This document shows positions 20,026 through 40,589 of a DNA stretch of 64,000 nucleotides, piece after piece; the stretch's first letter is position 1; every line of letters begins with the position of its first letter. Source of the stretch: Trichormus sp. ATA11-4-KO1 (GTDB lineage Bacteria > Cyanobacteriota > Cyanobacteriia > Cyanobacteriales > Nostocaceae); NCBI GenBank assembly GCA_019358915.1, contig JAHHIM010000015.1, positions 1 through 64,000 on the forward strand, written 5' to 3'. The notes below the pieces were generated by a model. That model had not been told where the DNA came from. It saw only the letters and a program-made list of their open reading frames with translations, and searched no databases. The position numbers were made by a program, and so were the translations under genes.

Positions 20026-20051
20026 AAGAATTGATGACTGTGGGTTTGCTT

Positions 20052-21221: not shown

Positions 21222-21522
21222 AGTCCCGATGAAACGAGTTTCACAGCCAAGTACGAAAGAGGGACTAGGGGTCAAAGTTTAAGATTGTTGTGATGATTGG
21301 CGTAAAAAAGGATGACAACAGATAAAGTTATTTTCTGACTTACTATAAATTAAGCAATGGCTGTTTAATTATGCTAATTGCTAAGGATATAAGTAAAAAT
21401 TCCCTTGATAATTTTATTCCAAATATTGGGAAATAAATACCATGACAATCAAAAATCATTGAATTATCCCAATGAAAATTGGGAATATTTTGATAAAGTA
21501 AAACATATATGGAGGTAAGATT

Positions 21523-22137
21523 ATGACCCAATCTTTACCAAAATTACTGACATTTGATGAATTTAGTGAATGGTATCCCAACGATGGTAAACGCTATGAA
21601 TTACATAGGGGAGTAATTGTTGAAATGCCCCCTCCATCTGGAGAACATGAAAAAGTTGTGGGATTTATAGCTCGTAAGTTAACTGTCGAGTTTGATCGCC
21701 TGAACCTTCCTTACACTATACCCAAAACCGCATTCGTCAAAACTCCTACTGCTGAATCTGCTTATTCGCCCGATGTCTTGTTATTAAATCTAGACAACCT
21801 CAGCAATGAACCACTTTTTCAAAAGCAGTCAACAGTCAGCCAAGCTGCATCTGTGCCGTTGGTGGTTGAGGTTGTATCGACTAACTGGCGAGATGATTAC
21901 TACAATAAACTTAGGGATTATGAAGAAATGGGCATTCCTGAATATTGGATTGCTGATTATGCTGCTTTGGGAGCTAGGAAATTTATTGGTAATCCCAAAC
22001 AACCGACTATTTTTGTATGTAATTTAGTTGATGGTGAATATCAAATGACTCCATTTCAAGGTGACACAGCGATTAAATCACCTACCTTCCCTCAATTAAA
22101 TTTAACCGCACAGCAGATTTTTGATGCTGCTAACTAA
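21523..22137 (+). CDS. Uma2-family endonuclease-like protein, paralog of 19408-20025
   Basis: Same motifs; GGAGG RBS upstream. Confidence 0.9.
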   Translation: MTQSLPKLLTFDEFSEWYPNDGKRYELHRGVIVEMPPPSGEHEKVVGFIARKLTVEFDRLNLPYTIPKTAFVKTPTAESAYSPDVLLLNLDNLSNEPLFQKQSTVSQAASVPLVVEVVSTNWRDDYYNKLRDYEEMGIPEYWIADYAALGARKFIGNPKQPTIFVCNLVDGEYQMTPFQGDTAIKSPTFPQLNLTAQQIFDAAN

Positions 22138-22156
22138 TTGATGGGAAATAATTACC

Positions 22157-22417
22157 ATGACAATCAATTTACCTCTAAAATTGTCACACTTGCCAAATAG
22201 TCTACCCTTAGATGGTGCTGTTCGCATCGAGTTAGTAGAAGGCGTGCCAATATTTCGTGCATCCAGCTTAGTCCAAGGGCGAATTGAAGCTTTATTAATT
22301 AAACAAAAAGAATCGGCTCTGACTTCCGAAGAAGAAACCGAATTAGATGGATATGAAGAATTAGACGATTATCTGAGTTTGGTGAATCGGATTATTAGAA
22401 ATACATCATTAATTTAA
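22157..22417 (+). CDS. Small hypothetical protein, possibly antitoxin-like
   Basis: 86-aa ORF co-oriented 19 nt after Uma2; LTSEEETELDGYEELDDYLSLVN. Confidence 0.6.
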   Translation: MTINLPLKLSHLPNSLPLDGAVRIELVEGVPIFRASSLVQGRIEALLIKQKESALTSEEETELDGYEELDDYLSLVNRIIRNTSLI

Positions 22418-22477
22418 AATTGAAAGTTTATCGACATACAATATCATCCCACATCTTGCCATAGTGCTTCATTAATC

Positions 22478-23085
22478 CAGGGCAAACGCATCTTATTTAC
22501 TAATAAAAACTAAGGAAGATTTAAAAATGACATAGATAATTGTAAAAATTGCTGGTATGATAAGTAAATTAAATCAAATTTTTCCCAAAATGTGAATTAG
22601 CTTATATTCAACTGAATAACTAATCATTAATACTAAAATAATTCAATTATGGGATACACAAAATTATATTTACCTAGAGAATAAATAAAACTTTTATGTA
22701 AAATATTAAGCTCAAGTTTGGATGCACTATTTTAAGCTAACGCTAAAATACTTAGTAAATATTTGTTATCCATCGCCGCGAGAAACTGTTTATTTTTGAT
22801 TCCACGTTTGACACGCTTCTCTTGAGTTAAAAGATTGACTGCAATATGTCTAAGAATTGCAAAATTCTGTGGAGCATTATCTTTTCTAATCCGACAGTCA
22901 TCTTCCCTTAAGCCAATATCTAATACCCAATGTAATGAATTCTCAACTCCCCAATGACTGCGAATAGAATTACCAAACTGTTCAGCATTATCTTCAAGGC
23001 TACTAATAAAATAACGAGTTTCAACTGTTGTTTTACCGTCTAATAAACGGACAGATTCTACCATGCCAACACTATTAAAGTTTGA
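22478..23085 (-). mobile_element. Second ISAs1-family remnant: transposase C-terminus plus probable right end
   Basis: ETRYFISSL...IRSHWGVENSLHWVLD...EDDCRIR; CAGGGCAAACGCATCT at 22478 resembles ISAs1 termini. Confidence 0.8.
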
Positions 23086-23371
23086 CAGGCAGCCGTCCTG
23101 ACTTTTCACGCCATCTGTAAAAGTCACTTTAATCAGTTAGCGATGGCGTAACCGCCCTTCCCGGTGGCGATCGCATAAATTGAGTTTTTCTTTGCGCTGA
23201 TCTTCTCCTGATTCCTAGTCATTAATCTAAAACTTTGGAAGCATAAGCACGTAAAAACGGCAATCTTATCCTTCCACCGACAATTATTAAATCCGCTTTA
23301 ATATCTGCGGAATGTGGTTTCAAAATCGCCTTGTTTGCAGTTTTATCGCTGGATGTTTGCAGTTTGCTACA

Positions 23372-24021: not shown

Positions 24022-27000
24022 ATGCAAATCAATGCAGATACTCCTGCCATTGCAGTTATTGGTATGGGTTGTCATTATCCTGGTGCTAGTAGTTTGCCGC
24101 AACTTTGGGAAAATATTCTTGCAAGACGACGCCAGTTTCGTCAACTGCCAGATCAAAGATTGCCCATATCTGAGTATTATGACCCAGAACCAACAACACC
24201 AGATAAATCTTACGGCGATCGCGCTGCTGTCATTGATGGTTTTGAGTTTGATTGGCCTGGTAAACGTATTCCGAAATCAACTGTCGAATCAACAGATATT
24301 GTTCATTGGCTCACACTAGAAGTAGCATTAAAGGCTCTACAAGATGCTGGATACACTCGTCAAAGTGTTGCGACTGAACGCTCAGGTGTCATACTGGGAA
24401 ACACCTTGACTGGAGAACACACCCGTTCTCAAACGATGCGCTTACGCTGGCCTTATGTCCGACGAGCCTTGCGGGCTGCTGGTAAAGCTAAAGGTCTGCC
24501 ACAGCAAACGGTGGAAGAACTTGTAGAAACGATGGAAGAGTTCTACAAATCTGTATTTGCTCCAATTACCGAAGATACCTTAGCTGGTGGACTTTCTAAT
24601 ACTATTGCTGGCAGAGTTTGTAACTTTTTTAACTTTAATGGTGGTGGTTATACAGTAGACGGTGCTTGTTCTTCTTCATTGATTGCTGTTGCTACTGCTG
24701 CTACAGCCTTAGCTAACGGTGATCTCAATCTGGCCTTAGCCGGAGGCGTTGATATTAGTCTAGATACTTTTGAACTGATTGGATTTGCCAAAACAGGGGC
24801 GCTGACTGGTCAAGATATGACTGTTTATGACCGCCGTGCTAGTGGTTTTATTCCCGGAGAAGGCTGTGGCTTTGTTGTCTTGAAACGGTTGGCAGACGCT
24901 CAAGCTGATGGTGATTATATATATGCAGTCTTAAATGGTTGGGGTATATCATCTGATGGCAAAGGTGGAATTACAGCCCCTTCAAAAGTAGGACAAGCTC
25001 AAGCCTTACGCCGTGCTTATGACCGCGCAGGTTACAGCCCCCACGAACTGGACTTTATTGAAGGACATGGTACAGGCACTCCAGTAGGCGATCGCACTGA
25101 AATTGAAGGTATTGCCCTAGCCATGAGTTCTGATGGTGAATTAGCACCTCGTTCCTGTGGTGTTACTTCCTTTAAATCCCTAGTAGGACACACTAAAGCT
25201 GCCGCAGGTATTGGCGGCTTTATTAAAGCAGTCATGGCTGTCAATCAGCGAATTATCCCACCCACAGCAGGCTGTAAAGACCCCAACCCTGTATTTAATA
25301 ATTCTGCCAAGTGCCTGTATCCAATTATTCAAGGCGAAATCCGCCTAGCTTCTGATGAGCTGGTAGCTGGTGTTTCCGCAATGGGATTTGGCGGGATCAA
25401 TTCTCATGTCACCCTTTCTTCTGGTCATGCACCTGCACCTCATCTCAAACCCAGTCTTGCTGAAAGGGCGTTGTTAGTTTCTCACCAAGATACAGAAGTA
25501 TTTGTTTTGAGTGCAGAATCTGTGCAAGCACTACTGCAACGGACTCAGACAGTGATGAACCAAGCCGCAGGTATGAGCCTGGCTGAACTCGTTGATTTTG
25601 CTGCCCAACTGGGACAAGAAGCAAAATCTTCTCAATCTGTCCGGACGGCGGTAATTGCTGGTACTCCCAAAGAACTCATGGTACGTCTCCAGCAACTCGA
25701 ACAGATGCTGAATGACACTCCCCCCGCCCCAGGAGAAGTTAAAGTTACTCCTCAAAAAGACATTTGGATTGCCAACTCAGTTAAACGTCATCGTGTGGCT
25801 TTTCTATTCCCTGGTCAAGGCTCACAAAAGTTGAACATGGCTCGGACTTTAGTAGAACGTCACGCCTGGGCTAGAGAACTGCTGCAACAAGCAAATAACT
25901 GGCTGAAAGAAACGGGCTTTGAGCCAATTAGTGAGTTCATCTATCGTCCCCTAGACCGGGCTGCTAATCAAGAACAAGTCCAAGATTGGTTTAAGAAACT
26001 GACCGAAGTTGCGCCCGCAGCCATCTGTTTTGCTTCTTTACTGTGGCAGCGCTATCTAGAACGGTTGGGAATTAAGCCATCTGTCATCGGCGGTCACAGC
26101 TTGGGTGAACTCACAGCCTTTCAAGCAGTAGGAGCTTATGACGAAAAAACCCTACTGTGTTTTGCTGCTATGCGTGGAAAAGCGATGGCAGCTAAGAGCG
26201 AAAATGCTGGCACAATGGCAAGCCTAGCTTGTTCATTAGCAACTACTGAGAGCCTCTTGCAGGGAATCCCTGGCTATGTAGTCGTAGCTAATATCAATAG
26301 TCCAGTGCAGACTGTAATCTCTGGCGAGCGAGCCAGCGTAGAAGCAGTAATCAGACGTGCTACAGATCAAGATATCCAAACTCGCCTGCTGCCAGTTGCC
26401 AACGCCTTTCATTCCCAAATGGTTGCACAAGCAGCTGCATATCTGCGTGCCCATGCACCAATTCCAGAGAAACTTACCCAAACCTTATTACCTCTCTTTT
26501 CCAGTGTTAACGGCCAGCAAGTCCTGCCTGGAATCAATCTGCGGGAATACTTCGCTAACCAAATGATTTCCCAAGTAGACTTTGTTTCCTTAGTGAAAGC
26601 GATCGCTCCCCAATGCGATTTGATCATCGAGGTAGGCCCTGGAAAAGTGCTGTCTGGTTTGGTAGAAGCAACAAGCATCGCCAATAGCCCCTGGTGTTTC
26701 CCTGTAGAATCCCAAGCAGGAAGCGATCGCGACCTCAACACTTTGTTAGGTAGTTTCTTTGTTCACGGCGGCGAAGTTAACTGGACAGCACTTTACGAAA
26801 ATCGTCTGGTGCGTCCTTTTATACCAGCATCACAGCGTTTGTTCATCGACAATCCTTGCGAACGACCCTTCCCAGAGTCACTAGAACAAATAAATGCAGT
26901 TGTGCATATTTCTCATGTACCGAACAGATATATACCTAAGCAGGAATTAACACAGCAGAATGACGAAGAGTTTTTTGATACCCTATCTGCTTATTTTTCA

Positions 27001-27063
27001 CAACGAAGCTCGTTTTTAGCTGAGTTGATTCGAGCCGATATTGAAACCTTGCCACTTCTATGA
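24022..27063 (+). CDS. pksE: Enediyne-type (PksE-clade) iterative type I PKS, subunit 1: KS-AT
   Basis: PksE-diagnostic KS segment GNTLTGE..R...MRLRWPYVRR...EDTLAGGLSNTIAGR...GGGYTVDGACSSSL; EGHGTGT and GHTKAAAG; AT with FPGQGSQ, GHSLGE and AFHS; post-AT RPF......F..NPCERP. Confidence 0.9.
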   Translation: MQINADTPAIAVIGMGCHYPGASSLPQLWENILARRRQFRQLPDQRLPISEYYDPEPTTPDKSYGDRAAVIDGFEFDWPGKRIPKSTVESTDIVHWLTLEVALKALQDAGYTRQSVATERSGVILGNTLTGEHTRSQTMRLRWPYVRRALRAAGKAKGLPQQTVEELVETMEEFYKSVFAPITEDTLAGGLSNTIAGRVCNFFNFNGGGYTVDGACSSSLIAVATAATALANGDLNLALAGGVDISLDTFELIGFAKTGALTGQDMTVYDRRASGFIPGEGCGFVVLKRLADAQADGDYIYAVLNGWGISSDGKGGITAPSKVGQAQALRRAYDRAGYSPHELDFIEGHGTGTPVGDRTEIEGIALAMSSDGELAPRSCGVTSFKSLVGHTKAAAGIGGFIKAVMAVNQRIIPPTAGCKDPNPVFNNSAKCLYPIIQGEIRLASDELVAGVSAMGFGGINSHVTLSSGHAPAPHLKPSLAERALLVSHQDTEVFVLSAESVQALLQRTQTVMNQAAGMSLAELVDFAAQLGQEAKSSQSVRTAVIAGTPKELMVRLQQLEQMLNDTPPAPGEVKVTPQKDIWIANSVKRHRVAFLFPGQGSQKLNMARTLVERHAWARELLQQANNWLKETGFEPISEFIYRPLDRAANQEQVQDWFKKLTEVAPAAICFASLLWQRYLERLGIKPSVIGGHSLGELTAFQAVGAYDEKTLLCFAAMRGKAMAAKSENAGTMASLACSLATTESLLQGIPGYVVVANINSPVQTVISGERASVEAVIRRATDQDIQTRLLPVANAFHSQMVAQAAAYLRAHAPIPEKLTQTLLPLFSSVNGQQVLPGINLREYFANQMISQVDFVSLVKAIAPQCDLIIEVGPGKVLSGLVEATSIANSPWCFPVESQAGSDRDLNTLLGSFFVHGGEVNWTALYENRLVRPFIPASQRLFIDNPCERPFPESLEQINAVVHISHVPNRYIPKQELTQQNDEEFFDTLSAYFSQRSSFLAELIRADIETLPLL

Positions 27064-27244
27064 AGAAGGCTGAGTTAAAAGACCGCCCACACTTCGACAA
27101 GAGTTCGGCGAAGGCTACTTCGACAAGGCTCAGTACAAGTCACTCGAGCCGCTCAGTGACCGCAAAAGGCGGCGGGGACTTGTACCAAGTATTTTTACTT
27201 CACTCAGCACTAACTAAAGTCAACCATTAACAAGAGAACGCATA

Positions 27245-30200
27245 ATGACTAGCCAAAATTCCGCACATCAGCAAATGAACGACGAACTCACCAAACTTCT
27301 AACTAACTACTTTAGCCAACGTGGTTCATTTTTAGCTCAAATTATTCGCGCTGATTTGCAAAGCTTGCCACATTTGACAAAGCAGATTCATCAAACTCAA
27401 CAAAATGGTAATGGTCAAGCTCAACAGAATAGCAATGGTAACGCCAACCACCATTACATGGTTGAACTTCCCACTACTCAGCCTGCAAGTGTTCCCCATC
27501 AAGTTGTACAACAACCACAAGCAGCTCCCCAAGTAGTTTCTCAACCAACCATAGATGTGGAAGCAATTCTAGTAAATTTGGTGGTTAAGCAAACCGGGTT
27601 TCCGCGAGAAAGTATCACCTTGCAACTACGATTACTAGATGATTTGAATTTGGATTCCATCAAAGGTGGGGAACTGGTTGCTGGTACTGCAAAGGAATGT
27701 GGTGTAGCAGGTAAGGTCGATCCTTCTACTCTAGCCAACGCCTCTCTGCAAGAGATTGTTGAGGCTGTGCGTGAAGCTATGCCTAGTGTGAATCAGACTC
27801 AAGTTACTCCTGTAATTCCCCCACAACCAGTGGTAATTGAGCCTAAACTAGCATCCATACCCAATATGTTGCTAGAAATGGTGGTGCAACGCACAGGTTT
27901 TCCACGAGAAACCTTATCCATGAACCTGCATCTGCTAGATGATTTAAATCTAGATTCGATCAAAACGGCAGAGTTTGTGGCTGAAGCAGCTAAGCGTGTA
28001 GGAGTTGAGGGGCTGATTGATCCTTCTAACTTTGCTAATGCCACTCTGGCAGAGATTGCCACCGTCTTACAACAACTGACAGAGAAGCAAAAACCATCTG
28101 TGCAACCAAGCCCCAAAGTAGCAACAACTCTACCTGCATCAGAATCAATACCTTGGGTACGCGACTTTGTTGTTGAATACGTTCCGGAAGAAAAACCTGT
28201 GTTACCTGCCTCCAGTCAGGAAGATAATTGGGAAACAACCAACATGTTCGAGGTGGACAATTGGTCAAACGCCAACATCCTGATGATGTCTGAGGTAGAA
28301 GAAGCTGATTTTGTAGAGACATTACAGCAAGAATTTCTCAGCCAAGGTGCGAAAGTCCAAGCTGTAACTTTTGCAGAAGTAGGCGATCACTCACTCATCC
28401 ACAGCATTGATTTTACACACTTCATTGCCGTACTTCCCCGGTCACCAAAAGGTGAAATGACCCCAGAAGCTCGTCTCCAAAGAGCTATGCAGAGGGTTCG
28501 TGCTGCCGCTACACCACCCGCAGCAGCTAAAGCTCAACGCCAATACACCACAGTTGCTTATATTCAATTTGGTGGTGGCTACTTTGGCAGACTAGCGGAA
28601 GTAACCGATATCGAGCAATCCTGTAGCATGGGCTTTGCTGCTAGTCTCCACCTTGAGCGCTCTGACCTGAAAGTGCGGGTGATTGATGTTCCCATCAGTG
28701 TTACTCCCACCTCACTCACAGGACGAATCGTTGCAGAACTCTCCCGACCAGAAGCATTTGTGGCAGTTGGCTATGATACCGACCTGACTCGACTCATCCC
28801 CCGACCCCGTGTTCAAGACACAGTACTGTATCAACACCGAGATATCACCTGGTTACCCAAAGATGTATTTTTAATTACAGGTGGTGCTAAGGGGATTACG
28901 GCTGAGTGTGCCTTGGCTCTAGCTAGAACCACAGGAGTACGCACAGCTTTGGTTGGTAGTTCAGCCCATCCCCAAGTTGACCCCACAGGCAAGAGTAGCG
29001 CAGAAATCGCTAATACCCTGCAACACTTCCAAGATGAAGGATTAACCTGTCGGTATTATCAATGCAATGTTAATGATGCGATCGCAGTTGCTAGTTTGGT
29101 ACAACGCGTTGAGAAAGAACTAGGTAAGATTACAGGAGTAATTCACGGTTCTGCCCTCAACAAACCCCGTCGTGTAGAAAATGCCACTTTAGAAGAAGCG
29201 CGTACAGAAGTTGCACCCAAATTACTTGGTGCAATGAATTTAATGCAAGCCCTTGCTAATAAACCACCAAAAATGTTTGTCGGTTTCTCTTCTATCAGCG
29301 CTGTTCTGGGACTCCCTGGTAATACCTGGTATGGATTCTCTAATGAAGCTCTAGATTTGATCTTGCGTCGCTTTGGAGAAGAACATCCAGAAACCGCCAC
29401 TCTCGCCATTGCCTTTAGTGTTTGGGCAGAAGTCGGCATGGGTGCCCGCATGGGTACTGTCCGGAACCTCAACCGCATGGGAATCGAAGCTATGCCCACA
29501 GACGAAGCTGTACGTCGATTCCTACACCTCATGCAAAATGATCCTGGAGATCCCCAAGTCGTAGTTTCAGCTAGATTGGGTGGGATAGATACTTTACGCC
29601 GTGGTTTTGATACCTGGCGCACAAAACGGATGCCTCCAGCTGCGGACTTAAGATTTATCGAGCAGGTGCAGATTATGGAACCTGATGTTGAGATAGTAGC
29701 CCGCACCCACCTGAGCTTAGAGCGCGATTCCTACGTCAAAGACCATATTTACAAAGGCTCCTATCTGTTCCCCACTGTGTTTGGTTTGGAAGCGATGGCT
29801 CAAGCTGTTGCCTATGCTACAGGTCTAACTCAGCTAGATGCACTACGAATTGAAAATATCCGCTTAGAACGCCCGATTGTCGTAGACCCGGAAAATGGCA
29901 TAGATATTGAAATTCGTGCCGAAGTACTAGAACGTGAATCAGTTAATGACTTCCGCAAAGTGCGGGCAGAAATCAGAACTGAGCGGACTGGGTTTGCAAT
30001 GGCTCATTTTGCAGCTACCTTTGTCTTCGACCAGCAACATGAAGCTCCCAAAGAACAGATTCAACTTCCTAAAACACCTTTGGATATTGATCCTCAACAA
30101 GACTTGTACGGATGGTTGTTATTTCAAGGGCCCCGCTTCCAACGCATACAACAGGTTTACTCCCTCAACTCGAAGAAGTTTGTTTTTCGTACCCAAAAAG

Positions 30201-30739
30201 GTGTACCAGCAGTCACAGGTGAAGAAAAATTTGATAGAGCATCTGGGCCTTTCCTACTAGGTGACCCCTATTATCGAGATTCCTTACTCCAAGCTGTACA
30301 GCCTGTAGTTCCTCAAGACATTTGCCTACCCATCCGCATCAACAGTATTCAAGTTTATCAAACCGATAGCAATATATCTGGTTCCTGCATCGGTGTGGTT
30401 AACCTGCATGGTCGCCAAGGTCGGCAATATAACAGCACAGTCTTTGCTGTGGATGAAGCAGGACGCATCATTGAAAAGCTAGATGGTTATCACCTACAGA
30501 TTCTAGAACATCGTGAAAATCATCCGACTGCTGAAGATTTGGCTGATCCTACTCAGCGTGATGAGCAACTTCTGCGCCGTGAACTTAACAATCGAGCTAA
30601 AGCTTTGCAGATGACCGTACCAGAAGCTTCACTCGCGCAACTTCCCGGTTTACATGCTTTATCTGCCGCAGAACGTCACCAACGGGAAATACCAGTGTTT
30701 TCCAAAACTGTGGATAAGCTGTTAAGCACTCTCGAATAA
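27245..30739 (+). CDS. Enediyne-type PKS subunit 2: ACP-ACP-KR-DH
   Basis: Two LLDDLNLDSIK ACPs; PWVRDF; KR LITGGAKGITAECALALA and YGFSNE; DH DHIYKGSYLFPTVFGLEAMAQA, LFQGPRFQR and GDPYYRD. Confidence 0.9.
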   Translation: MTSQNSAHQQMNDELTKLLTNYFSQRGSFLAQIIRADLQSLPHLTKQIHQTQQNGNGQAQQNSNGNANHHYMVELPTTQPASVPHQVVQQPQAAPQVVSQPTIDVEAILVNLVVKQTGFPRESITLQLRLLDDLNLDSIKGGELVAGTAKECGVAGKVDPSTLANASLQEIVEAVREAMPSVNQTQVTPVIPPQPVVIEPKLASIPNMLLEMVVQRTGFPRETLSMNLHLLDDLNLDSIKTAEFVAEAAKRVGVEGLIDPSNFANATLAEIATVLQQLTEKQKPSVQPSPKVATTLPASESIPWVRDFVVEYVPEEKPVLPASSQEDNWETTNMFEVDNWSNANILMMSEVEEADFVETLQQEFLSQGAKVQAVTFAEVGDHSLIHSIDFTHFIAVLPRSPKGEMTPEARLQRAMQRVRAAATPPAAAKAQRQYTTVAYIQFGGGYFGRLAEVTDIEQSCSMGFAASLHLERSDLKVRVIDVPISVTPTSLTGRIVAELSRPEAFVAVGYDTDLTRLIPRPRVQDTVLYQHRDITWLPKDVFLITGGAKGITAECALALARTTGVRTALVGSSAHPQVDPTGKSSAEIANTLQHFQDEGLTCRYYQCNVNDAIAVASLVQRVEKELGKITGVIHGSALNKPRRVENATLEEARTEVAPKLLGAMNLMQALANKPPKMFVGFSSISAVLGLPGNTWYGFSNEALDLILRRFGEEHPETATLAIAFSVWAEVGMGARMGTVRNLNRMGIEAMPTDEAVRRFLHLMQNDPGDPQVVVSARLGGIDTLRRGFDTWRTKRMPPAADLRFIEQVQIMEPDVEIVARTHLSLERDSYVKDHIYKGSYLFPTVFGLEAMAQAVAYATGLTQLDALRIENIRLERPIVVDPENGIDIEIRAEVLERESVNDFRKVRAEIRTERTGFAMAHFAATFVFDQQHEAPKEQIQLPKTPLDIDPQQDLYGWLLFQGPRFQRIQQVYSLNSKKFVFRTQKGVPAVTGEEKFDRASGPFLLGDPYYRDSLLQAVQPVVPQDICLPIRINSIQVYQTDSNISGSCIGVVNLHGRQGRQYNSTVFAVDEAGRIIEKLDGYHLQILEHRENHPTAEDLADPTQRDEQLLRRELNNRAKALQMTVPEASLAQLPGLHALSAAERHQREIPVFSKTVDKLLSTLE

Positions 30740-30793
30740 TGTTGACAAGTCCCTGATTTCAAAAATTTAACAGTAAGGATTAAATATTAAGTC

Positions 30794-32401
30794 ATGAATA
30801 AGTCTTCATCAACTGCTGTCAAAACCAAAGCTAGACCAAAAAGCAGTTCCCGTCCAATCAGTAAATTTGGCCCAACACCTCTACAGGGTTCAGGTTTGCT
30901 GCAAAATGTTCAAATAAATTGGCTTGATTCTGGAAAGCCTGTACTTGAGGGACTAGAAAAGGAATTAGTAGATGTGTCCCTTTCTCATGACGATCGCGTT
31001 TGTCTGTGTGTCGCTGGTATTGGCCCCCAAGGTTGTGACATTGCTCCTGTAACCCATCGCTTACGAGAAGATTGGACTGCTTTACTCAGTAACTCTCGCG
31101 AGCCTGTAATGCAACAGCTACTAGAAAATAGCTCCGATTCAGTAGACCTTGCTGGTACACGGATTTGGGCAGCAATTGAAGCTGTACGTAAAGCTACGAA
31201 TGCTCAGAAAATCGACTTAGAAATTGACCGTTATGAAGGAGATAGTATTCTATTCCGGGGAATTACTGCTGAGAATCAAGTATATATCTTGACTTTTCCT
31301 CTGGCACTTACGCGGGGCCCAGAAAGAGTTGTTGCTGTTGTTGTCTCCAATCCTCAAGCTACTGCTAGCGATCGCACTCCCAAAACAGTCCGGACTACGC
31401 CAGTTGAAGATATTTACCGCATCAGTAATTCTCACGAAAACGAGAAAGTATTTGTTGTGCGATCGCCTGTCTCGTACAAAGAGACTGCTAACCTCAGCCA
31501 AAGTGTCTATTTTTCGCACTTTTTTAACTGGATGGGTAAGATTCGCGATTTAGCTATTTGGTCTATTCGTGAACCCCTAGGACAGCATTTAGCTACTGGT
31601 GAGTGGGGAATGGTCACTAATCATGCTCAAACCCGAATTCTTGGTGAAGCGGGACTAAACGATGTCATCGAAGGACGTTACTGGGTAGCTAATGTATCTG
31701 GCCCTGCTAATTCAACTGTTGATTTTCGCTACGATTGGCTCAAAGTTTTACCTGATGGTAGTTTTGAGCGGATTGCTCAAAGTCAGTTGTGTATGACTTG
31801 GGTAAATCTAGCCAAACAAGGGCCCGCCGAACTGAAACCCTTACCAGATTACTTAGAAAAGTTCATCAACCAATTATCTGACCCGTCCTATACTCCCCAG
31901 CCACTCCCAGAATCTTTTGCGGATATTCACTTAGGAAAAAAGTTATATCAAGCACTACCAGGTATTAACTCTGGTCGATTACTACGAGAACAGATTTTTG
32001 AAACATCTCTAGAAGATACAGACGCGATCGGCAATATTAACTTTGCTAACTACTACGTTTGGCAAGGACGCATCCGGGATAGTTTCTTCTACAAACTCAT
32101 CCCAGACTCTTACCGCAGAACAGCAAGTCAAGGTGAATTTCGGTGTCTGCACAGTCGGGTAGAAAACTTACGCGAAGCGCTACCCTTCGATCAAATCCAG
32201 GTGAATATGTCACTACGGGCAGTATACGAAAACAGTGTCAGTTTGGCTTTTGCATATTTTCGCCTCACACCAGATGGTAAGAAACAAAAGCTAGCCGTTG
32301 GTGAGCATGAAGCTGCGTGGTTTAGCCGTAGCCAGGATGGGAAATTCGTACCAGCGCCATTACCAGAAGTTGTGCGCTTGGCTTTATGTGAACAGTCTTG
32401 A
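30794..32401 (+). CDS. PKS subunit 3: PksE-type phosphopantetheinyl transferase fused to two hotdog thioesterase domains (PksE10/CalE7-like)
   Basis: GKP, SLSH, GCDIA and W..IEAVRKA PPTase motifs; KETANLSQSVYFSHFFNWMGKIRD and EDTDAIGNINFANYYVWQGRIRD thioesterase motifs. Confidence 0.8.
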   Translation: MNKSSSTAVKTKARPKSSSRPISKFGPTPLQGSGLLQNVQINWLDSGKPVLEGLEKELVDVSLSHDDRVCLCVAGIGPQGCDIAPVTHRLREDWTALLSNSREPVMQQLLENSSDSVDLAGTRIWAAIEAVRKATNAQKIDLEIDRYEGDSILFRGITAENQVYILTFPLALTRGPERVVAVVVSNPQATASDRTPKTVRTTPVEDIYRISNSHENEKVFVVRSPVSYKETANLSQSVYFSHFFNWMGKIRDLAIWSIREPLGQHLATGEWGMVTNHAQTRILGEAGLNDVIEGRYWVANVSGPANSTVDFRYDWLKVLPDGSFERIAQSQLCMTWVNLAKQGPAELKPLPDYLEKFINQLSDPSYTPQPLPESFADIHLGKKLYQALPGINSGRLLREQIFETSLEDTDAIGNINFANYYVWQGRIRDSFFYKLIPDSYRRTASQGEFRCLHSRVENLREALPFDQIQVNMSLRAVYENSVSLAFAYFRLTPDGKKQKLAVGEHEAAWFSRSQDGKFVPAPLPEVVRLALCEQS

Positions 32402-32831
32402 TTGAGCATAAATCTTCCCACAATGGCATTGCTGAATCAGATGCTTTTTTGCATAAATTCATAACGAATTGAGGGTGGAAATTTAAACGCAAAGGAGAGG
32501 CAGCGCGTTGCGGGGGTTCCCCCCGTTGTAGCGACTGCCGTCGCGCAAAGGTTAGCGCAGAGTAATGCCAAGGTTTGATCAAGGCAATTTTTTTTCGCTA
32601 CGAACTTGTGAAATCATGTACTAAGTAGGAGAGAAATGCAAATCATCCTGCAAATATGCAATGCCCAAATTCAATGTTTGTAAATCTCTGCATAAATTCT
32701 TCAAGCTGGTCTGAGAAGTAAATGAAAGGCGTAATCAAAAAGAAAAACGCCAGACCGATTAACCTACTGGGTTATTTAACGAAAATGGGATGCACCCAAC
32801 ATCAAGTTATTTACCAATTTAATTAAGTCTA

Positions 32832-34613
32832 ATGTACACTACTCAGTCTCAAGAATATGATGTCGTAATTATGGGAGCAGGATTTGCGGGCGTTTGTCAA
32901 GCAAGGCATCTCATGCTCAACATTCCCAATATCAAAGTTGCGCTCATTGATCCTCGCCCTGAAGAACGCACCGATAAAGATATGAAAATCGGTGAGTCGA
33001 TGATCGAAGGCGCTGCTCTCTTTGTCTGCAAGGAGTTGGGGCTTTACGAATACATGATCGAAAACCACACACCCAAGAATGGATTAAATTTTCACTGGCC
33101 TAAAGATCCTGCTCAAACCTCTAATTTGGATGACTACTATCATCTGTGGGTAAATCGGCAAACCGACATTGGTTCCTTTCATATGAACCGAGCCAAGTTT
33201 GAGCGGGATGTGCTGAAGATGAATCAGGAGATGGGTGCGGTTTTCTATAATGGTCGTGTACTAGATGTAGACCTGACTCCAGGTGATGCAATTAAAACGG
33301 TTAAGGTTAAGGTTCATGGTGAAGATATAGAACTGAAAGCCAAGCACGTAATTGATGCAGCAGGTCGTAAGTTTATGATTGGGCGTAAGAAAGACAATAT
33401 CATCTTCCATCAACCGGATGGTGGAGAAGGAGCAGATAACCTTTACGGTCTCAATAACGGCTCAGCATGGGTGCGAGTGAGAAATATAGACCGTAAACTC
33501 TTCCACGATGGCTATGACCCCACCGGAGCTGCTACCAGTCACTACTATGCCACCAATCACTGGTTTGGTCACGGTCACTGGTTGTGGATGATTCCCACAG
33601 ACAAAGACCCGTTAGAATTATCCATTGGTGTGATTCACCATCATGAGGTAATTCCAGCTAACAGTATTAATAGCTTAGATAAGTTTTCAGCTTTTCTCAA
33701 AGAAAATCACAAACTGCTTTATCAGTTAATTAATAGCGGCGAATTGGTTGATTTTCACTATTTACCTAGGTTAGGTCATAACAGTAAAACTCTATATTCT
33801 CAGGATAACTGGTATGTGCTGGGAGATGCGGCTTGTATTTTTGATGCATTTTATTCTTTCGGCACAACGATGATTGCCTTTGCTACTGAAAGCATCACCG
33901 AAATTATTCGCGCCAAACTAGCAAAAGAAGCTGATGCCGAAATAAAGCGGGAAGCTTACAATCGGTTCAATCTTCGCTATGTCCAAGATGTCAATCGTCT
34001 GTACCGCTACCATGCCAAGCAACTAGGTAACGCCAGCATTATGAGCTGGAGAATATCCTTTGAATATAGTTGGTGGTTTGGTTTGCATGTACCCCTTTAT
34101 CTTGGTAAATGGCATTTACATTTGCGCTACGTCAATACATACTTGCAACACACCAAACGAGTGGGCAATTTTATTAATCATGTCCACGACCAACTAAGTT
34201 TGCTCGTTGAACAAGGCAAAAATATTGGCTTCCTCGATCCTTATCGTGCTGATCAACTGTTCAATCATCACAGTCCTGTGAGCCATGCTGATACTTATTT
34301 GGAAAATGCCAGGTATGAACCCAGACGATGCAACATTTTTAGAAATAGTCGTCAGACTTGTTTAAACGTTGCTGTTTGGTATGCAATGTTTCTGTGGAAA
34401 GGTTTTGGAATTGCCGGATTTTTATCTCCTCGCTCTCTGCAATATCTATTCCTGTTAATTGGATTGGTAGGTTATGGAGCTTTTTATGAGATATTCTATC
34501 TCTACCAAACCAGGAAGCTTCCTGCCAACAGTCAAGTGGCTCAAAGAAATCAAGAAGTTAAAGACTATCAATACAAAGCTGAATTACAGCCTTGGATAGC
34601 TGAAGCCCAATGA
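32832..34613 (+). CDS. Flavin-dependent halogenase 1 (tryptophan-halogenase superfamily)
   Basis: GAGFAG FAD motif, KIGES, catalytic-Lys-like TPKNGLNFHW, WLWMIP (WxWxIP), GDAA..FDAFYS.G. Confidence 0.82.
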   Translation: MYTTQSQEYDVVIMGAGFAGVCQARHLMLNIPNIKVALIDPRPEERTDKDMKIGESMIEGAALFVCKELGLYEYMIENHTPKNGLNFHWPKDPAQTSNLDDYYHLWVNRQTDIGSFHMNRAKFERDVLKMNQEMGAVFYNGRVLDVDLTPGDAIKTVKVKVHGEDIELKAKHVIDAAGRKFMIGRKKDNIIFHQPDGGEGADNLYGLNNGSAWVRVRNIDRKLFHDGYDPTGAATSHYYATNHWFGHGHWLWMIPTDKDPLELSIGVIHHHEVIPANSINSLDKFSAFLKENHKLLYQLINSGELVDFHYLPRLGHNSKTLYSQDNWYVLGDAACIFDAFYSFGTTMIAFATESITEIIRAKLAKEADAEIKREAYNRFNLRYVQDVNRLYRYHAKQLGNASIMSWRISFEYSWWFGLHVPLYLGKWHLHLRYVNTYLQHTKRVGNFINHVHDQLSLLVEQGKNIGFLDPYRADQLFNHHSPVSHADTYLENARYEPRRCNIFRNSRQTCLNVAVWYAMFLWKGFGIAGFLSPRSLQYLFLLIGLVGYGAFYEIFYLYQTRKLPANSQVAQRNQEVKDYQYKAELQPWIAEAQ

Positions 34614-34750
34614 AAAGTGCTGAGTTAAAAGTGCTGAGTGCTGAGTTAAAAGACCTTAGCACCTTAGCTTTTCTCACGCAGATATCTAGGAAAATTTTCT
34701 CTAATTCTCATATTTCCATACACATTTGTTAGTTAACAAAGGAATTATCA

Positions 34751-36604
34751 ATGTATACTAGCCAGTCTCATGAATATGACGTTGTGATTATGGGTGCAGG
34801 GTTTGCTGGTCTATGTCAAGCAAGGCATCTGATGCTCAACATCCCCAATATCAAAGTTGCCCTCATCGACCCTCGACCGGAAGAACGGACTGATAAAGAC
34901 TTGAAAGTTGGTGAATCTTTGGTGGAAGTCTCTTCGCTTTTTGTGACTAAAGAGTTGGGTCTTTATGAGTACATGATTGAAAATCATACACCAAAGTTTG
35001 GTTTGAATTTTCATTGGCCGAAAGACCCTGCTCGTACCGAAACAATTGATGATTACTTGAGTATTTGGGATAATCGGCAACCATCGATTACTACTTTTCA
35101 TATGAACCGCTCTAAGTTTGAGCGAGATGTGTTGCAAATGAATCAGGAGATGGGTGCTGTTTTCTATAATGGTCGCGTCTTAGATGTTGATCTGACACCA
35201 GGTGATGCAATTAAAACGGTTAAGAGTAAGGTTAACGGTGAAGTTATAGAACTGAAAGCCAAGCACGTAATTGACGCCGCAGGTCGCAGGTTCATTATTG
35301 GCAATAAGACCAATAATTTGGTTTTTAATCAAGCTGGTGGCGGTGAAGGGTCTGATAATCTCTACGGTGTTAATAATGGCTCAGCATGGCTACGTGTGAG
35401 AAATATGGATCGATCGCTGTTCCATGATGGTTATGATCCCACAAGTGCGACTGCTAGTCACTGGTATGCAACCAATCACTGGTTTGGTCATGGACATTGG
35501 TTATGGATGATTCCTACCAGTACAGATCCTTTAGAACTGTCGATTGGGGTTATTCATCATCATGAGGTCATTCATAGTGAACAGATTAATACTCGCGATA
35601 AATTCCTTGCTTTCTTGAAAGCAAATCATACCCATCTCTATAAACTGATCACTAGTGGTGAACAAGTTGATTTCCATTACTTGCCGAGAGTAGCGCATAG
35701 CAGCAAAATGGTATTTTCTCCCGATAACTGGTATGTGCTGGGTGATGCAGCCTATATTTTCGATGCTTTTTATTCCTATGGTGCAACAATGATTTCTTTT
35801 GCTGCGGAAAGCATCACCGAAATCATTCGCGCCAAGTTGGCAGGGGAAGCCAATGCGGAACAGAAACGCTTGGCTTTTAACGAGTTTAATCTGACAATGG
35901 CACGTAGTGCTAATGGCGTCATGCGCTATCATGCCAAGCAATTAGGCAATGCTAGTGTGATGAGTTGGCGGATTTACTTTGAGTATATGTGGTGGTTTGG
36001 GATTATTTTGCCTTTGTTTATCGGTAAACGACACCTGGATATTAACTTTGTCCCTCAATTCACCAAAGCTTTTAGTGCCAATATTGATGGAGTTTTAGCT
36101 GATGTACATCAACAGTTTAATCAACTTGTAGATCAAGGCACTAATTTAGGTATTTTAGATTGTTACAGAGCAGATCAATTAGTTGGAGAATACTACACAT
36201 CTAAACGCTTTGATGACTACCTGGAAAACGCTAAGTATGAACCAGGACGAACCAATATCTTTGCTAGTATCAAATCTGCTTACTACTACGTAGCAATTTG
36301 GTACACCATGTTTCAGTGGAAAGGCTTTGGTTTAGCAGGTTTGCTAGCACCGCGATCGCTTTACAATATCTTCCGTTTACTGGCTTTGTCGAGCTATACT
36401 GCCATCGGCGAATTAATCTACCGCTTCCAGACCCGAAATTTGCCTGCTAACAGTCAAGTGGAAAAGATGCGTCAAGAATTCAAAAACTACCAATACCAAG
36501 CTCAGTTACAGCCTTGGACTCCAGAAATAGACTCGCCATGCATGGAGCAGCAATCAAGTGAGCAAGCAGTACCAAGGCTGCCAGAGTTATCTGTACTGTC
36601 CTAG
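34751..36604 (+). CDS. Flavin-dependent halogenase 2, tandem paralog
   Basis: Same motifs: GAGFAG, KVGES, TPKFGLNFHW, WLWMIP. Confidence 0.82.
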   Translation: MYTSQSHEYDVVIMGAGFAGLCQARHLMLNIPNIKVALIDPRPEERTDKDLKVGESLVEVSSLFVTKELGLYEYMIENHTPKFGLNFHWPKDPARTETIDDYLSIWDNRQPSITTFHMNRSKFERDVLQMNQEMGAVFYNGRVLDVDLTPGDAIKTVKSKVNGEVIELKAKHVIDAAGRRFIIGNKTNNLVFNQAGGGEGSDNLYGVNNGSAWLRVRNMDRSLFHDGYDPTSATASHWYATNHWFGHGHWLWMIPTSTDPLELSIGVIHHHEVIHSEQINTRDKFLAFLKANHTHLYKLITSGEQVDFHYLPRVAHSSKMVFSPDNWYVLGDAAYIFDAFYSYGATMISFAAESITEIIRAKLAGEANAEQKRLAFNEFNLTMARSANGVMRYHAKQLGNASVMSWRIYFEYMWWFGIILPLFIGKRHLDINFVPQFTKAFSANIDGVLADVHQQFNQLVDQGTNLGILDCYRADQLVGEYYTSKRFDDYLENAKYEPGRTNIFASIKSAYYYVAIWYTMFQWKGFGLAGLLAPRSLYNIFRLLALSSYTAIGELIYRFQTRNLPANSQVEKMRQEFKNYQYQAQLQPWTPEIDSPCMEQQSSEQAVPRLPELSVLS

Positions 36605-36857
36605 CTCAACACGATGAAGAGTGCTGAGTTAAAAGACCACTCACAAGGGGTGAGGTATCAACCTGTTCCCTGTAAGAAGATTCTACCCATAAGAGGTGAA
36701 GTATTTACCGAGTGCGAAAGTAACAAGCATTCTTCTTACTCAGCACTCCCCTTCGACTTCGCTCAGGGCAGGCGCACTCAGCACTTTTACATCAAGTGCA
36801 TCATAGAATTCCACTTTCTCCACATGTTTTCATTATTGAGGAATAAATTTAAAAACT

Positions 36858-37214
36858 ATGTCTGAGTTAACATCGACCCCAAGCACTAATGAAATTCATA
36901 AGGGACTCCATCTCTTGGGATTAAGTCTTTCTGAACTGGAACTCAATGACCTGAAGATAGGGCAAACTATTTCACTCGAAACCAGAAGTTTAGGTGAAAT
37001 CGGTTCAATGTTTATCTTAGCAGCAGCACTTTCAGCCGTGAATTTAGGTAAAACTAAGAAAACTGTGACCTTTGGAGATTTACCACAAGTAGTGAATGAA
37101 TCGGCAAATTCCCCAGGAATTCCCATATATTGCTGGATTTCTGATACTCTGAATAAAAAATGTCTTTACCTAACTTTAGTTGATGGCAAACCTGCACTGT
37201 GCATTACCACGTAG
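36858..37214 (+). CDS. Hypothetical 118-aa protein inside PKS cluster
   Basis: ATG with upstream GAGGA, co-oriented between halogenase 2 and devB; no recognised motif. Confidence 0.6.
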   Translation: MSELTSTPSTNEIHKGLHLLGLSLSELELNDLKIGQTISLETRSLGEIGSMFILAAALSAVNLGKTKKTVTFGDLPQVVNESANSPGIPIYCWISDTLNKKCLYLTLVDGKPALCITT

Positions 37215-37383
37215 CACTAGTAAAGCTCAGGATAAATTTACATAAGTTCGTAATTTTAGTGAAGAGCTAAAGTTCCCACCAATGGGTTATTTTATCAGTT
37301 ATGGATTTATGAAATACTGACCTCCGCTATAGTTGATAAAACTTGATGATCCGAGCTTTTTTACTTTTTTATGGGATGCTTAA

Positions 37384-38703
37384 ATGAAATCACCACTATC
37401 TTTTAAATCTACAAGCTTGGTAACAACTATTCTCTTAGTTACAGGCGCTTTAATTACAGGTGCTGTGACTACTTATTCTGTATTACGTTTCCAGTCAGCA
37501 AATTCCAGTCCGCCACCAACTACCCTAGCTACTGCGAATATTGATATTGGTGCTGTTGCTGCTACGGGGGTTTTGGAACCTAAAGACGAAGTAATTGCCA
37601 TATCTGCACCAGCTTTCCAGGAAGGAGCAAGAGTGAAGCAACTGCTAGTGAAACGGGGAGATAAAGTTGAATCTGGTCAAGTCATCGCTATTCTAGACAG
37701 CCGCGATCGCTTGGAAGCATCTCTGCAACAGGCGCAAACACAAATTAGAGTTGCCCAAGCTCGTCTACTGCAAGTCAAAGCTGGTGCGAAAAGAGGTGAC
37801 ATCATAGCTCAAGATGCTAGGTTTCAAGGTACAAAGGCTGAATTAGAAGGGCAAATCGCCACCCAAAGGGCAGCCATTGCTAGCTTACAGGCTAAGTTGC
37901 AAGGGGAAAAGAGTGCCCAAGAAGCGACGATTGGGCGCATCAAAGCTGAGTTACGAAATTCCCAAACTGATTGTGAGCGCTATGAGAATTTATATAAAGA
38001 TGGGGCGGTAGCAGCTCAACAACGTGATAGTTTTTGCCTGCAACGGGACACCAATCAAGAACGGCTCAAGGAAGCCCAAGCAAATCTCAGCCGCATTGTC
38101 AATTCTTATCAAGAAGATATTCAAGAAGCAAAAGCAAACCTGAATCGCACAGTAGCCACAAATCAAAAGCAGATTAAAGAAGCGCAAGCCACCCTAGACT
38201 CAGTTGCAGAAGTTCGTCCTGTCGATGTACAAATCGCCCAAATGGAATTTGCAGCTGCACAAGCAGCAGCTCAACGGGCTAGGGCAGATTTAGATTTAGC
38301 TTATGTGCGATCGCCTAGAGATGGTCAAGTTCTAAAAGTTCATACCTGGCCAGGTGAACTAATTGGCAATGAGGGAATTGTTGACTTAGGAAACACTGAC
38401 CAAATGTATGTAACGGCAGAAGTTTATGAAACCGATATTACTAGAGTCAGTATAGGTCAAACAGCCACAATTAGGGGTGATAGAGTAATAGGCGATTTAC
38501 AAGGAACAGTAGATGAAATTGGTTTACAAATTGGCAAAAAAGATGCACTAGGGACTGACCCCGTTGCTGATGCAGATGCCAGAGTAGTGGAAGTAAAAAT
38601 TAAGCTCGATCAAGAAGCTAGTCAGCGAGTTGCAGGCTTAACTAATTTACAAGTCAAAGTGGTGATTAATACATCAGAAACTACACAAAGCATGAGCAAT
38701 TAA
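37384..38703 (+). CDS. devB: DevB-family ABC exporter membrane fusion protein
   Basis: AVAATGVLEP, LLVKRGDKV, long coiled coil, AEVYETDI, DARVVEVKI. Confidence 0.9.
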   Translation: MKSPLSFKSTSLVTTILLVTGALITGAVTTYSVLRFQSANSSPPPTTLATANIDIGAVAATGVLEPKDEVIAISAPAFQEGARVKQLLVKRGDKVESGQVIAILDSRDRLEASLQQAQTQIRVAQARLLQVKAGAKRGDIIAQDARFQGTKAELEGQIATQRAAIASLQAKLQGEKSAQEATIGRIKAELRNSQTDCERYENLYKDGAVAAQQRDSFCLQRDTNQERLKEAQANLSRIVNSYQEDIQEAKANLNRTVATNQKQIKEAQATLDSVAEVRPVDVQIAQMEFAAAQAAAQRARADLDLAYVRSPRDGQVLKVHTWPGELIGNEGIVDLGNTDQMYVTAEVYETDITRVSIGQTATIRGDRVIGDLQGTVDEIGLQIGKKDALGTDPVADADARVVEVKIKLDQEASQRVAGLTNLQVKVVINTSETTQSMSN

Positions 38704-38712
38704 CCAAAAATT

Positions 38713-39888
38713 ATGTTTAGTAAATTACCTACAGCTTGGTTACAACTTAGCCATCAAAGAACTCGATTAATTGTTGCACTTTCCGGAGTTATCTTTGCAG
38801 TTGTGATTGTTTTTATGCAGCTTGGCATTCGTGATGCTTTGTTTGATAGTGCGGTTCGTCTCCATGAAGGTTTACAAGGTGATTGTTTTTTAATTAGTCC
38901 GCGTTCTACATCCTTAATTGCGATGGAGAGCTTTCCAGAAAGACGCTTAACGCAAGCTTTGGCGTTTGAGGAAGTGGATTTTGTGAATCCTATTTATTTG
39001 GGATTTGGTCAGTGGAAAAACCCCGAAACTAGAGATTATTGGCGCAATATTTTTGTGATTGGTTTTGAATTTCGAGATAGAGAGCCAATATTTAATTTTC
39101 CAGGAGTTGAAGAGAATTTAAATTTTCTGAAATTACCGGATATGGTTTTATTTGACCGTAGTTCTCGCTCTGAATTTGGTCCTATTGTGGCAGACTTTGA
39201 AAAACAGCGCAACGTAACAGCAGAAATTAGCGATCGCGGTATAAATCGCAAAGTTCAAGTAGCGGGATTATTTGAACTGGGAACTTCGTTTGGATCTGAT
39301 GGTAATTTACTTACTAGCCATCTTAACTTCCTGAGAATTTTTAGTGGTCGGCAGCAAGGCTTAATTAATATTGGCTTGATTAAATTAAAACCTGGAAATG
39401 ATGCTGATGCTTTTGTCACGAAACTGAAAGACTACTTACCCAAAGATGTGAAAGTTCTCTCAAAATCCGAATTAATTGCTTTTGAAAAAAATTATTGGCA
39501 AAGTAGTACAGCAATTGGCTTTATTTTTAACTTAGGAGTAGCTCTAGGAATTATTGTCGGTGTTGTGGTTGTTTATCAAATTCTTTATAGCAATGTTTCG
39601 GAACATTTAGCAGAATATGCCACTCTCAAAGCAATGGGATATCGTCATAATTATCTGTTGTCTATGGTGCTGCAACAAGCCTTGTTTATTGCCATTTTAG
39701 GTTATATACCAGGTTTGCTCATTTCTGTAATTCAATATGAATTTGCTAAACAAGCTACCTTACTACCAATTGTGATGAATTTCCCCAGAGCAACATTTGT
39801 CCTAGCATCAACTATCATTATGTGTTTTATTTCTGGTGCTACTGCGGTGGGTAAACTAAAATCCGCAGATCCGGCTGATATTTTTTAA
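38713..39888 (+). CDS. devC: DevC-family ABC exporter permease
   Basis: AWLQL..R..VALSGV.FA..FMQLG, HLAEYATLKAMGY, C-terminal ADPADIF. Confidence 0.92.
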   Translation: MFSKLPTAWLQLSHQRTRLIVALSGVIFAVVIVFMQLGIRDALFDSAVRLHEGLQGDCFLISPRSTSLIAMESFPERRLTQALAFEEVDFVNPIYLGFGQWKNPETRDYWRNIFVIGFEFRDREPIFNFPGVEENLNFLKLPDMVLFDRSSRSEFGPIVADFEKQRNVTAEISDRGINRKVQVAGLFELGTSFGSDGNLLTSHLNFLRIFSGRQQGLINIGLIKLKPGNDADAFVTKLKDYLPKDVKVLSKSELIAFEKNYWQSSTAIGFIFNLGVALGIIVGVVVVYQILYSNVSEHLAEYATLKAMGYRHNYLLSMVLQQALFIAILGYIPGLLISVIQYEFAKQATLLPIVMNFPRATFVLASTIIMCFISGATAVGKLKSADPADIF

Positions 39889-39902
39889 GGACTATATATA
39901 TT

Positions 39903-40589
39903 ATGCAACCTGTAATAGCTATTAGTAATCTCAACCATTATTATGGCAATAGTTCTTTAAAAAAACAGGTCTTATTTGATATTAACCTGGAAATATATCC
40001 GGGAGAAATTGTCATTATGACTGGCCCTTCCGGCTCTGGAAAAACTACTTTATTATCATTAATTGGGGCTTTGCGTTCTGTCCAAGAGGGAAGTATTAAA
40101 ATTTTAGGCGAAGAAATGCATGGCGCAAATGAAGAAAAAATGGTGCAAACTCGTCGCCACATCGGTTATATTTTCCAAGCTCATAATTTATTACCATTTA
40201 TGAGTGCTAGACAAAATGTCCAAATGTCAATTGAGCTGCATGAAGATATTAGCAGTCACGAAGCACGCACCAAATCGGAAGCAATGCTTCAGGAAGTGGG
40301 ATTGGGGGAGCGAGTTGACTACTATCCTGACAGCCTTTCAGGAGGACAAAAACAACGTGTAGCGATCGCTCGTGCTTTAGTGAGTCACCCTAAACTAGTT
40401 TTAGCAGATGAGCCAACTGCGGCATTAGATAAAAAGACAGGTCGAGATGTTGTAGATTTGATGCAGCGTCTAGCAAAAGAACAAGGATGCACTATCATGT
40501 TGGTAACTCACGACAATCGGATTTTAGATATTGCCGATCGCATTATTAATATGGAAGATGGTCAACTTTCACTGATGACAGTTACTTAA
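39903..40589 (+). CDS. devA: DevA-family ABC exporter ATP-binding subunit
   Basis: GPSGSGKTT, IFQAHNL, LSGGQKQRVAIARAL, LADEPTAALD. Confidence 0.93.
   Translation: MQPVIAISNLNHYYGNSSLKKQVLFDINLEIYPGEIVIMTGPSGSGKTTLLSLIGALRSVQEGSIKILGEEMHGANEEKMVQTRRHIGYIFQAHNLLPFMSARQNVQMSIELHEDISSHEARTKSEAMLQEVGLGERVDYYPDSLSGGQKQRVAIARALVSHPKLVLADEPTAALDKKTGRDVVDLMQRLAKEQGCTIMLVTHDNRILDIADRIINMEDGQLSLMTVT

Follow-up and report, generated by a model that had tools for sequence, protein, structure and literature searches.

The enediyne-type iterative polyketide synthase (PKS) of actinobacteria, PksE, is a single polypeptide with the domain order ketosynthase (KS), acyltransferase (AT), acyl carrier protein (ACP), ketoreductase (KR), dehydratase (DH) and phosphopantetheinyl transferase (PPTase), and its cassette includes an E10/E7-type hotdog thioesterase together with E3, E4 and E5. 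Among cyanobacteria, Microcystis PCC 7806 was described in 2008 as having an orphan PksE-like iterative PKS accompanied by three halogenases (Frangeul et al., PMC2442094), and the same cluster was listed as an orphan of 15-16 kb, 'enedyine type' or 'PKSI iterative', by Humbert et al. (PMC3741299). A cyanobacterial enediyne KS clade was delineated by Calteau et al. (PMC4247773), and enediyne-type KSs or clusters outside actinobacteria recur in later surveys, with no products given in the parts of them consulted (PMC10308959, bioRxiv 2022.10.12.511943, PMC4139720, PMC6520454). Here, we describe a cluster at positions 24022-40589 of the window, the 64,000-nucleotide stretch of contig JAHHIM010000015.1 of Trichormus sp. 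ATA11-4-KO1. It is a member of this known orphan family, neither an enediyne cassette nor the undescribed system that the first-pass annotation had taken it for. Its synthase is split over three genes, and this split architecture is a variant of which we found no description. Indeed, the literature portions searched name no product for the family and describe neither the helix pair nor the split PPTase discussed below, these searches not having been aimed at docking or splitting, and split genes may be shown in a figure of Calteau et al.

The host genome is a draft, 99.89% complete in 73 contigs. For comparison we used the best 79 related loci (L numbers) out of 134 stretches in the genome collection, 57 of them cyanobacterial and 22 from other organisms; the counts of neighbouring genes in these loci are limited by flank length and refer to genes within 10 kb. 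The closest relatives are two Nostocales loci (L002 and L003, 89-96%) and one Chroococcales bin (L001, 91%). Halogenase genes accompany the PksE-like PKS in 48/57 cyanobacterial loci and in 0/22 of the others, and the family extends to the non-heterocystous genera Microcystis and Okeania. The Microcystis loci of the sample (L007 and L009-L011) are 63-69% identical to ORF1, the first open reading frame (ORF) of the cluster, and belong to the same 38-member group in our KS tree. The window cluster resembles the PCC 7806 orphan in that both are cyanobacterial clusters pairing a PksE-like iterative PKS with more than one halogenase. Compared by description, it differs from it in having two halogenases instead of three, three PKS genes, and a DevBCA exporter and a gene for a 118-residue protein downstream.

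ORF1 (24022..27063, + strand, 1013 residues) is the KS-AT subunit of the synthase and keeps the catalytic residues of both domains (KS Cys216, His349 and His390; AT Ser693 and His797). With SgcE it shares 41.5% identity across 1017 columns, against 33% with the best other PKS of the host, and it contains the KS motif first quoted as a PksE signature, a closely similar GNTLTGE...RLRWPYVRR stretch being found in SgcE. The KS tree (94 sequences, built by a quick method that raised a long-branch warning; L001, whose KS is cut, was left out) places the window KS inside an 84-member clade, with support 100, that includes four actinobacterial PksE sequences. Within it, the window KS belongs to an 80-member, almost wholly non-actinobacterial group, sister to these four. 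The outgroup consists of the host's own PfaA-type genes, apart from the ORF1 KS. Furthermore, with the TIGR02813 model (cut-off 1010), ORF1 scores 425 bits and ORF2 201, against 2255 and 1751 for the host PfaA-type genes. The KS therefore goes with SgcE-type PksE and separates from the PfaA/HglE-type KSs of the host, as the annotation had anticipated. The resemblance to PfaA/HglE heterocyst glycolipid synthases lies in a related KS-AT-ACPn-KR layout and the common DevBCA exporter family, whereas the KS clade is separate and both subunits fall below the TIGR02813 cut-off.

The order KS-AT-ACP-KR-DH-PPTase plus hotdog thioesterase, said to be spread over three genes, was recovered with amendments: the ACP and the hotdog domain are each present twice, and the break between the second and third genes falls inside the PPTase domain instead of between domains. 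ORF2 (27245..30739, +, 1164 residues) consists of a helix, two ACPs (Ser138 and Ser238), a KR (Tyr696), a DH (His834 and Asp1012) and an N-terminal PPTase fragment. ORF3 (30794..32401, +) carries the remainder of the PPTase (residues 38-186) followed by two hotdog thioesterase domains. Catalytic residues are found in every PKS domain of the three proteins. The thioesterase is, as proposed, of the E10/E7 type, since its best solved relatives include CalE7 (E 1.1e-11), DynE7 (5e-9) and an ACP-polyene thioesterase, and Arg428 is kept; the extra hotdog domain preceding it carries the same Arg motif (Arg251). The synthase is therefore like that of the actinobacterial cassette in domain order, in its 41% KS-AT identity to SgcE and in its thioesterase with the conserved Arg. 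It differs in being made of three polypeptides with two ACPs, in the doubling of the thioesterase and its fusion to the PPTase, in a helix after the AT that is absent from SgcE, in the lack of E3/E4/E5, and in a KS that is sister to the actinobacterial PksE sequences and not within them. Eight long relatives (2800-3200 residues; P0055, P0057, P0062, P0067, P0101, P0106, P0112 and P0119) have an extra fused flavin adenine dinucleotide-dependent oxidoreductase domain.

The nine ORFs of the cluster are real and intact: all lie on the + strand, at the positions first given for them, with no internal stops. The eight genes that we compared with close homologues (DevA was left out) are under purifying selection, with ratios of nonsynonymous to synonymous substitution (dN/dS) of 0.05-0.16. 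A promoter and terminator scan gave a signal no better than chance level.

The lack of an enediyne cassette, first noted for the cluster, holds for the 73-contig draft, as neither profile searches nor tblastn found E3, E4 or E5. The PF08012 (E3) and PF07593 (E4) profiles gave no match in the genome, the positive controls giving none either. Using SgcE2-E5, a second actinobacterial set and a cyanobacterial DUF1702 as tblastn queries, we obtained no genome match at E 0.01 except for a weak E4 match (E 0.001) on another contig. This tblastn test can work, since in 11/79 of the related loci SgcE2/E3 retrieved DUF1702 (E2/E3-family) genes, with E values no higher than 1e-27. The 79 loci gave no E5 match and one weak E4 match (E 3e-5, in a non-cyanobacterial locus). 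Six of the 11 DUF1702 loci have no thioesterase within the flank, and DUF1702 might serve chain release or tailoring in such clusters. Loci without the hotdog thioesterase often show a tandem DUF1702 pair beside the halogenases (L004, L008, L013, L019, L020, L027, and L105 and L106 of genome G010). A carotenoid-oxygenase (RPE65) gene follows the PKS in eight loci, all without a thioesterase (L033, L039, L040, L041, L043, L047, L048 and L051); it comes mostly with an aldehyde dehydrogenase gene, is also found in a Gloeothece plasmid cluster (L081), and suggests oxidative cleavage of a polyene.

On balance, and largely by analogy, we favour a synthase whose three subunits make and release a conjugated polyene, subsequently halogenated and exported, over one that makes an enediyne. 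In this reading, the PksE-like iterative PKS found outside actinobacteria would take a functional three-subunit form in the cluster. Malonyl units would be loaded by the KS-AT subunit, and the ACP2-KR-DH subunit would reduce and dehydrate the chain in each round to give a linear conjugated polyene thioester. The chain would be released by the double hotdog thioesterase, presumably as a decarboxylated polyene, given that PksE/thioesterase pairs yield pentadecaheptaene (PMC9992847). The two flavin-dependent halogenases, supplied by a flavin reductase of the host, would then place Cl or Br on the polyene or on its tethered precursor, and DevBCA would export the lipophilic product. Subunits 1 and 2 would be joined by a duplicated helix whose copies have diverged into an acidic and a basic form, and subunits 2 and 3 by a PPTase fold re-formed from two fragments. 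We infer the product, the halogenase activity, the export and both docking contacts. A more ambitious proposal seems quite unlikely to us: that cyanobacteria have a second route, independent of the cassette, that converts a PksE polyene into halogenated polyenes or polyynes, with flavin halogenases taking over the halogen chemistry for which actinobacteria use E3/E4/E5, on a three-chain synthase with both a new docking pair, derived from a duplicated self-associating helix by polarisation of charge, and a split PPTase that is still active.

The helix is found at the first cut, between AT and ACP. ORF1 ends and ORF2 begins with stretches that share 18/34 positions (local score 100; the highest score among 5000 shuffles was 57). 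The repeated unit is a helix of 25 residues, acidic in the upstream copy A at the C-terminus of ORF1 (residues 987-1011; 26980..27054, +), a putative docking element, and neutral to basic in the downstream copy B near the N-terminus of ORF2 (residues 18-42; 27296..27370, +), its putative partner. Both halves carry it in 30 loci split at this site. Among 120 long relatives it is single in 86, a tandem double in 8 and not detected in 26, and it was not detected in SgcE or in a second actinobacterial PksE. The mean net charge is -2.0 for copy A, +1.1 for copy B and +0.2 for the single copy. Copy A is more acidic than copy B in 30/30 pairs, which are kin and not independent events, and one position is E, D or N in 30/30 upstream copies and Q, K or R in 30/30 downstream copies. 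These data suggest, at the level of sequence, that duplication turned a self-associating element into a pair that docks heteromerically. In the KS tree, every split or tandem form belongs to the 38-member KS group (support 87), which fits a single duplication and split that some lineages later reversed by fusion, this direction being deduced. Both helices have a low dN/dS, on few changes. A predicted complex of two A and two B helices scored 0.23 (mark 0.32), the helix profile found no relative below E 0.1 among solved structures, and it matches 14/301 genomes sampled from the order. The stop of ORF1 and the start of ORF2 are spaced by -11 to +36 nt in 25/30 related split loci; in the window the gap is widened to 181 nt by a dispersed intergenic repeat (27060..27165, no strand assigned) identified with blastn.

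The second cut passes through the PPTase. The intact PPTase domain of a relative (L039), modelled with a predicted local distance difference test (pLDDT) of 90, has a group II (Sfp/PptT) fold and matches PptT over model residues 11-223 (Z 15.9, root mean square deviation 3.2, 184 aligned residues). On this model the window cut maps to the loop that follows the helix of residues 47-65, the counterpart of Sfp 49-61, so that about 60 residues of the fold would be left on ORF2. This N-terminal fragment (about ORF2 residues 1095-1160; 30527..30724, +) aligns with the start of intact PPTase domains. The cut site is common to sixteen loci, and both cut sites occur together in 11/79 loci of several families. 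In ORF3, whose PPTase domain match is weak, the triad reads Asp82-Ala84-Glu129, with Lys133 also kept; the second acidic position, Ala84 here, is lost in 17/17 split forms and kept in 31/36 intact forms, and this loss may have a single origin. The PPTase fragments have a low dN/dS on few changes (0.16 for the N-terminal one). The second Mg-binding acidic position is reported as non-essential (PMC4103896), and the host has a separate Sfp-type PPTase of its own, so the fragments may re-form an active enzyme or only tether the subunits. In three other loci (L036, L045 and L052) the halogenase is followed by a gene for an asparagine-synthetase-like amidotransferase, and the fused PPTase has lost the first Asp and His.

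Judged from tree topology and local identity, the cluster is a recombinant mosaic. Its KS and AT group with L003 (the AT also with L001), whereas KR-DH groups with eleven three-part loci, and approximately unbiased tests on 23 of the 54 sequences reject congruence in either direction (p 2e-9 and 8e-6), for groups that were defined once the trees had been seen. Near ACP1, within ORF2, the identity to L003 drops to about 50% from about 80-95%, which indicates that the B helix was transferred along with the KS-AT gene. A second breakpoint (L011 versus L007) lies between KS and AT, hence recombination is independent of gene boundaries. Freely interchangeable subunits, considered as the cause of the mosaic, are rejected by these positions, the one inside ORF2 being seen against both L001 and L003. 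Dispersed intergenic repeats also lie at 34610-34652 and 36614-36800, and such repeats are multicopy in the genome (64 blastn hits for 27060-27244, 135 for another spacer). Upstream, 19408-23127 holds two Uma2 nuclease genes and fragments of an N6 methylase and a transposase; none of the upstream window genes tested match the upstream flank of genome G001, but the downstream TPR and UPF0014 genes do.

The halogenase-like genes, two as annotated, encode H1 (32832..34613, +, 593 residues, Lys82) and H2 (34751..36604, +, 617 residues), which are 69% identical and group together with their L002 orthologues. Both are flavoproteins of the Trp_halogenase family, with the GxGxxG, Lys and WxWxIP motifs intact. 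The Lys, WxWxIP and F.D..YS.G motifs mark flavin halogenases; of 86 aligned family members, 80 have the Lys and all 86 have both Trp of WxWxIP. PltA and ChlB4, which act on carrier proteins, and the alkyl halogenase CmlS share with H1 and H2 the fold family, GxGxxG, the aligned Lys (in PltA, that of FPKKFG) and WxWxIP; H1 and H2 differ in about 150 additional C-terminal residues. Elsewhere in the genome, a separate small cluster (L109; G000:C17:44000-56000) contains a distantly related halogenase homologue (28%) together with genes for fatty acid desaturase, ectoine-synthase-like cupin, GNAT, old yellow enzyme (OYE) reductase, GDSL lipase and amidohydrolase. The exporter, too, was correctly named: the DevB-family membrane fusion protein (37384..38703, +; TIGR02971 334.5 bits, cut-off 129), the DevC permease (38713..39888, +; TIGR01185 517.2 bits, cut-off 290.35) and the DevA ATPase (39903..40589, +; TIGR02982 384 bits, cut-off 295.8) all exceed the NCBIfam cut-offs, and DevBCA is linked to the PKS in several relatives, following it in genomes G001, G008, G014 and G017. 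Between H2 and DevB, the 118-residue protein (36858..37214, +) is of no known family, with no Pfam or NCBIfam match and no usable Atlas hit. Its model (pLDDT 78) has a best Z of 3.1 among 48,161 chains, and its gene recurs near the cluster in 13/79 loci. A gene for a protein of about 325 residues with RTX calcium-binding repeats adjoins the PKS in 12/79 loci (L005, L007, L016, L017, L018, L022, L023, L026, L031, L032, L044 and L049).

Several observations weigh against a halogenated, exported polyene made by docked subunits. H1 and H2 are distant from characterised enzymes (the best solved relative is PltA, with H2 at E 2.7e-19) and weakly match geranylgeranyl reductase and LodB-type models, and this remoteness leaves their halogenase activity putative. 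There is no flavin reductase gene within the cluster, the genome holding five SgcE6-like genes; DevBCA lies within the flanks in only about 9/79 loci, and seven further DevC paralogues are encoded in the genome. The 30 helix pairs may reflect a single event, because all come from one KS clade, and the helix is not essential to every PksE, because 26/120 long relatives and SgcE show none. Finally, the loss of the second Glu in all 17 split PPTases may mean a loss of activity. Two other products can be envisaged. DevBCA belongs to the heterocyst glycolipid exporter family, and H1 and H2 could be reductases or oxygenases of the same fold, the cluster making a reduced or oxygenated polyene-derived envelope lipid that DevBCA would export. 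They score below the curated NCBIfam halogenase cut-offs, the GG-red-SF and LodB models match them about as well as or better than CmlS, and H1 has a hydrophobic C-terminal segment. However, the Lys aligned with PltA FPKKFG, WxWxIP and F.D..YS.G are kept across the family, and the family's presence in non-heterocystous Microcystis and Okeania also speaks against such a lipid; we regard it as unlikely. We find decidedly improbable an alkyne-bearing product, a halo-polyyne or an ene-diyne, formed by a route parallel to E3/E4/E5 in which the halogenases would give electrophilic halogen that is kept or eliminated. Enediyne biosynthesis reportedly proceeds via a diiodotetrayne, and DUF1702 genes stand beside the same PKS and halogenases in the 11 loci mentioned. 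Moreover, Fischerella muscicola is a source of ene-diyne fischerellins (PMC4849077), and one sequenced strain of this species has two such clusters (L046 and L060). Nevertheless, the window genome has no DUF1702, E4 or E5 match of note, the related loci have no E5 match and a single weak E4 match, and the window cluster has no non-ribosomal peptide synthetase. Fischerellins contain nitrogen rings and no halogen. Identity with a fischerellin cluster was considered and is not supported.

The same polyene could also be made without docking through the two elements, the helices being self-associating or left over and the split PPTase a dead relic, with the host PPTase priming the ACPs. We find this fairly unlikely. 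In its favour are the replacement of the second Mg-binding Glu in every split PPTase and its retention in most intact ones, the separate Sfp-type enzyme and the changes at further PPTase catalytic positions in L058. It accords less well with the retention of Asp82, Glu129 and Lys133 around a second position reported as dispensable (PMC4103896), with the low dN/dS, on few changes, of helices and fragments, with a charge split that runs in one direction, and with the joint movement of the A/B pair in recombination. It is barely conceivable that the division of the PKS into three parts results from an assembly error or from pseudogene decay. Odd frameshift-like breaks do occur in L018, L048, L057 and L075, and a transposase fragment lies upstream, but this reading is contradicted by the conservation of the two cut sites, found together across several families, and by purifying selection in the genes tested; in 25/30 loci the stop and the start either overlap or are at most 36 nt apart.

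In conclusion, the Trichormus cluster belongs to a family that has been orphan since 2008 and is found in bloom-forming and nitrogen-fixing cyanobacteria. Being compact and self-contained, it offers a simple version of the family to express. The natural variants with and without the thioesterase, DUF1702 or the carotenoid oxygenase provide a comparative handle on the function of the E3 family. A PPTase naturally split over two genes would be unusual. If docking by the helix pair is true, the pair would show a PKS docking domain arising by duplication, and would supply a 25-residue connector for the engineering of iterative PKSs.

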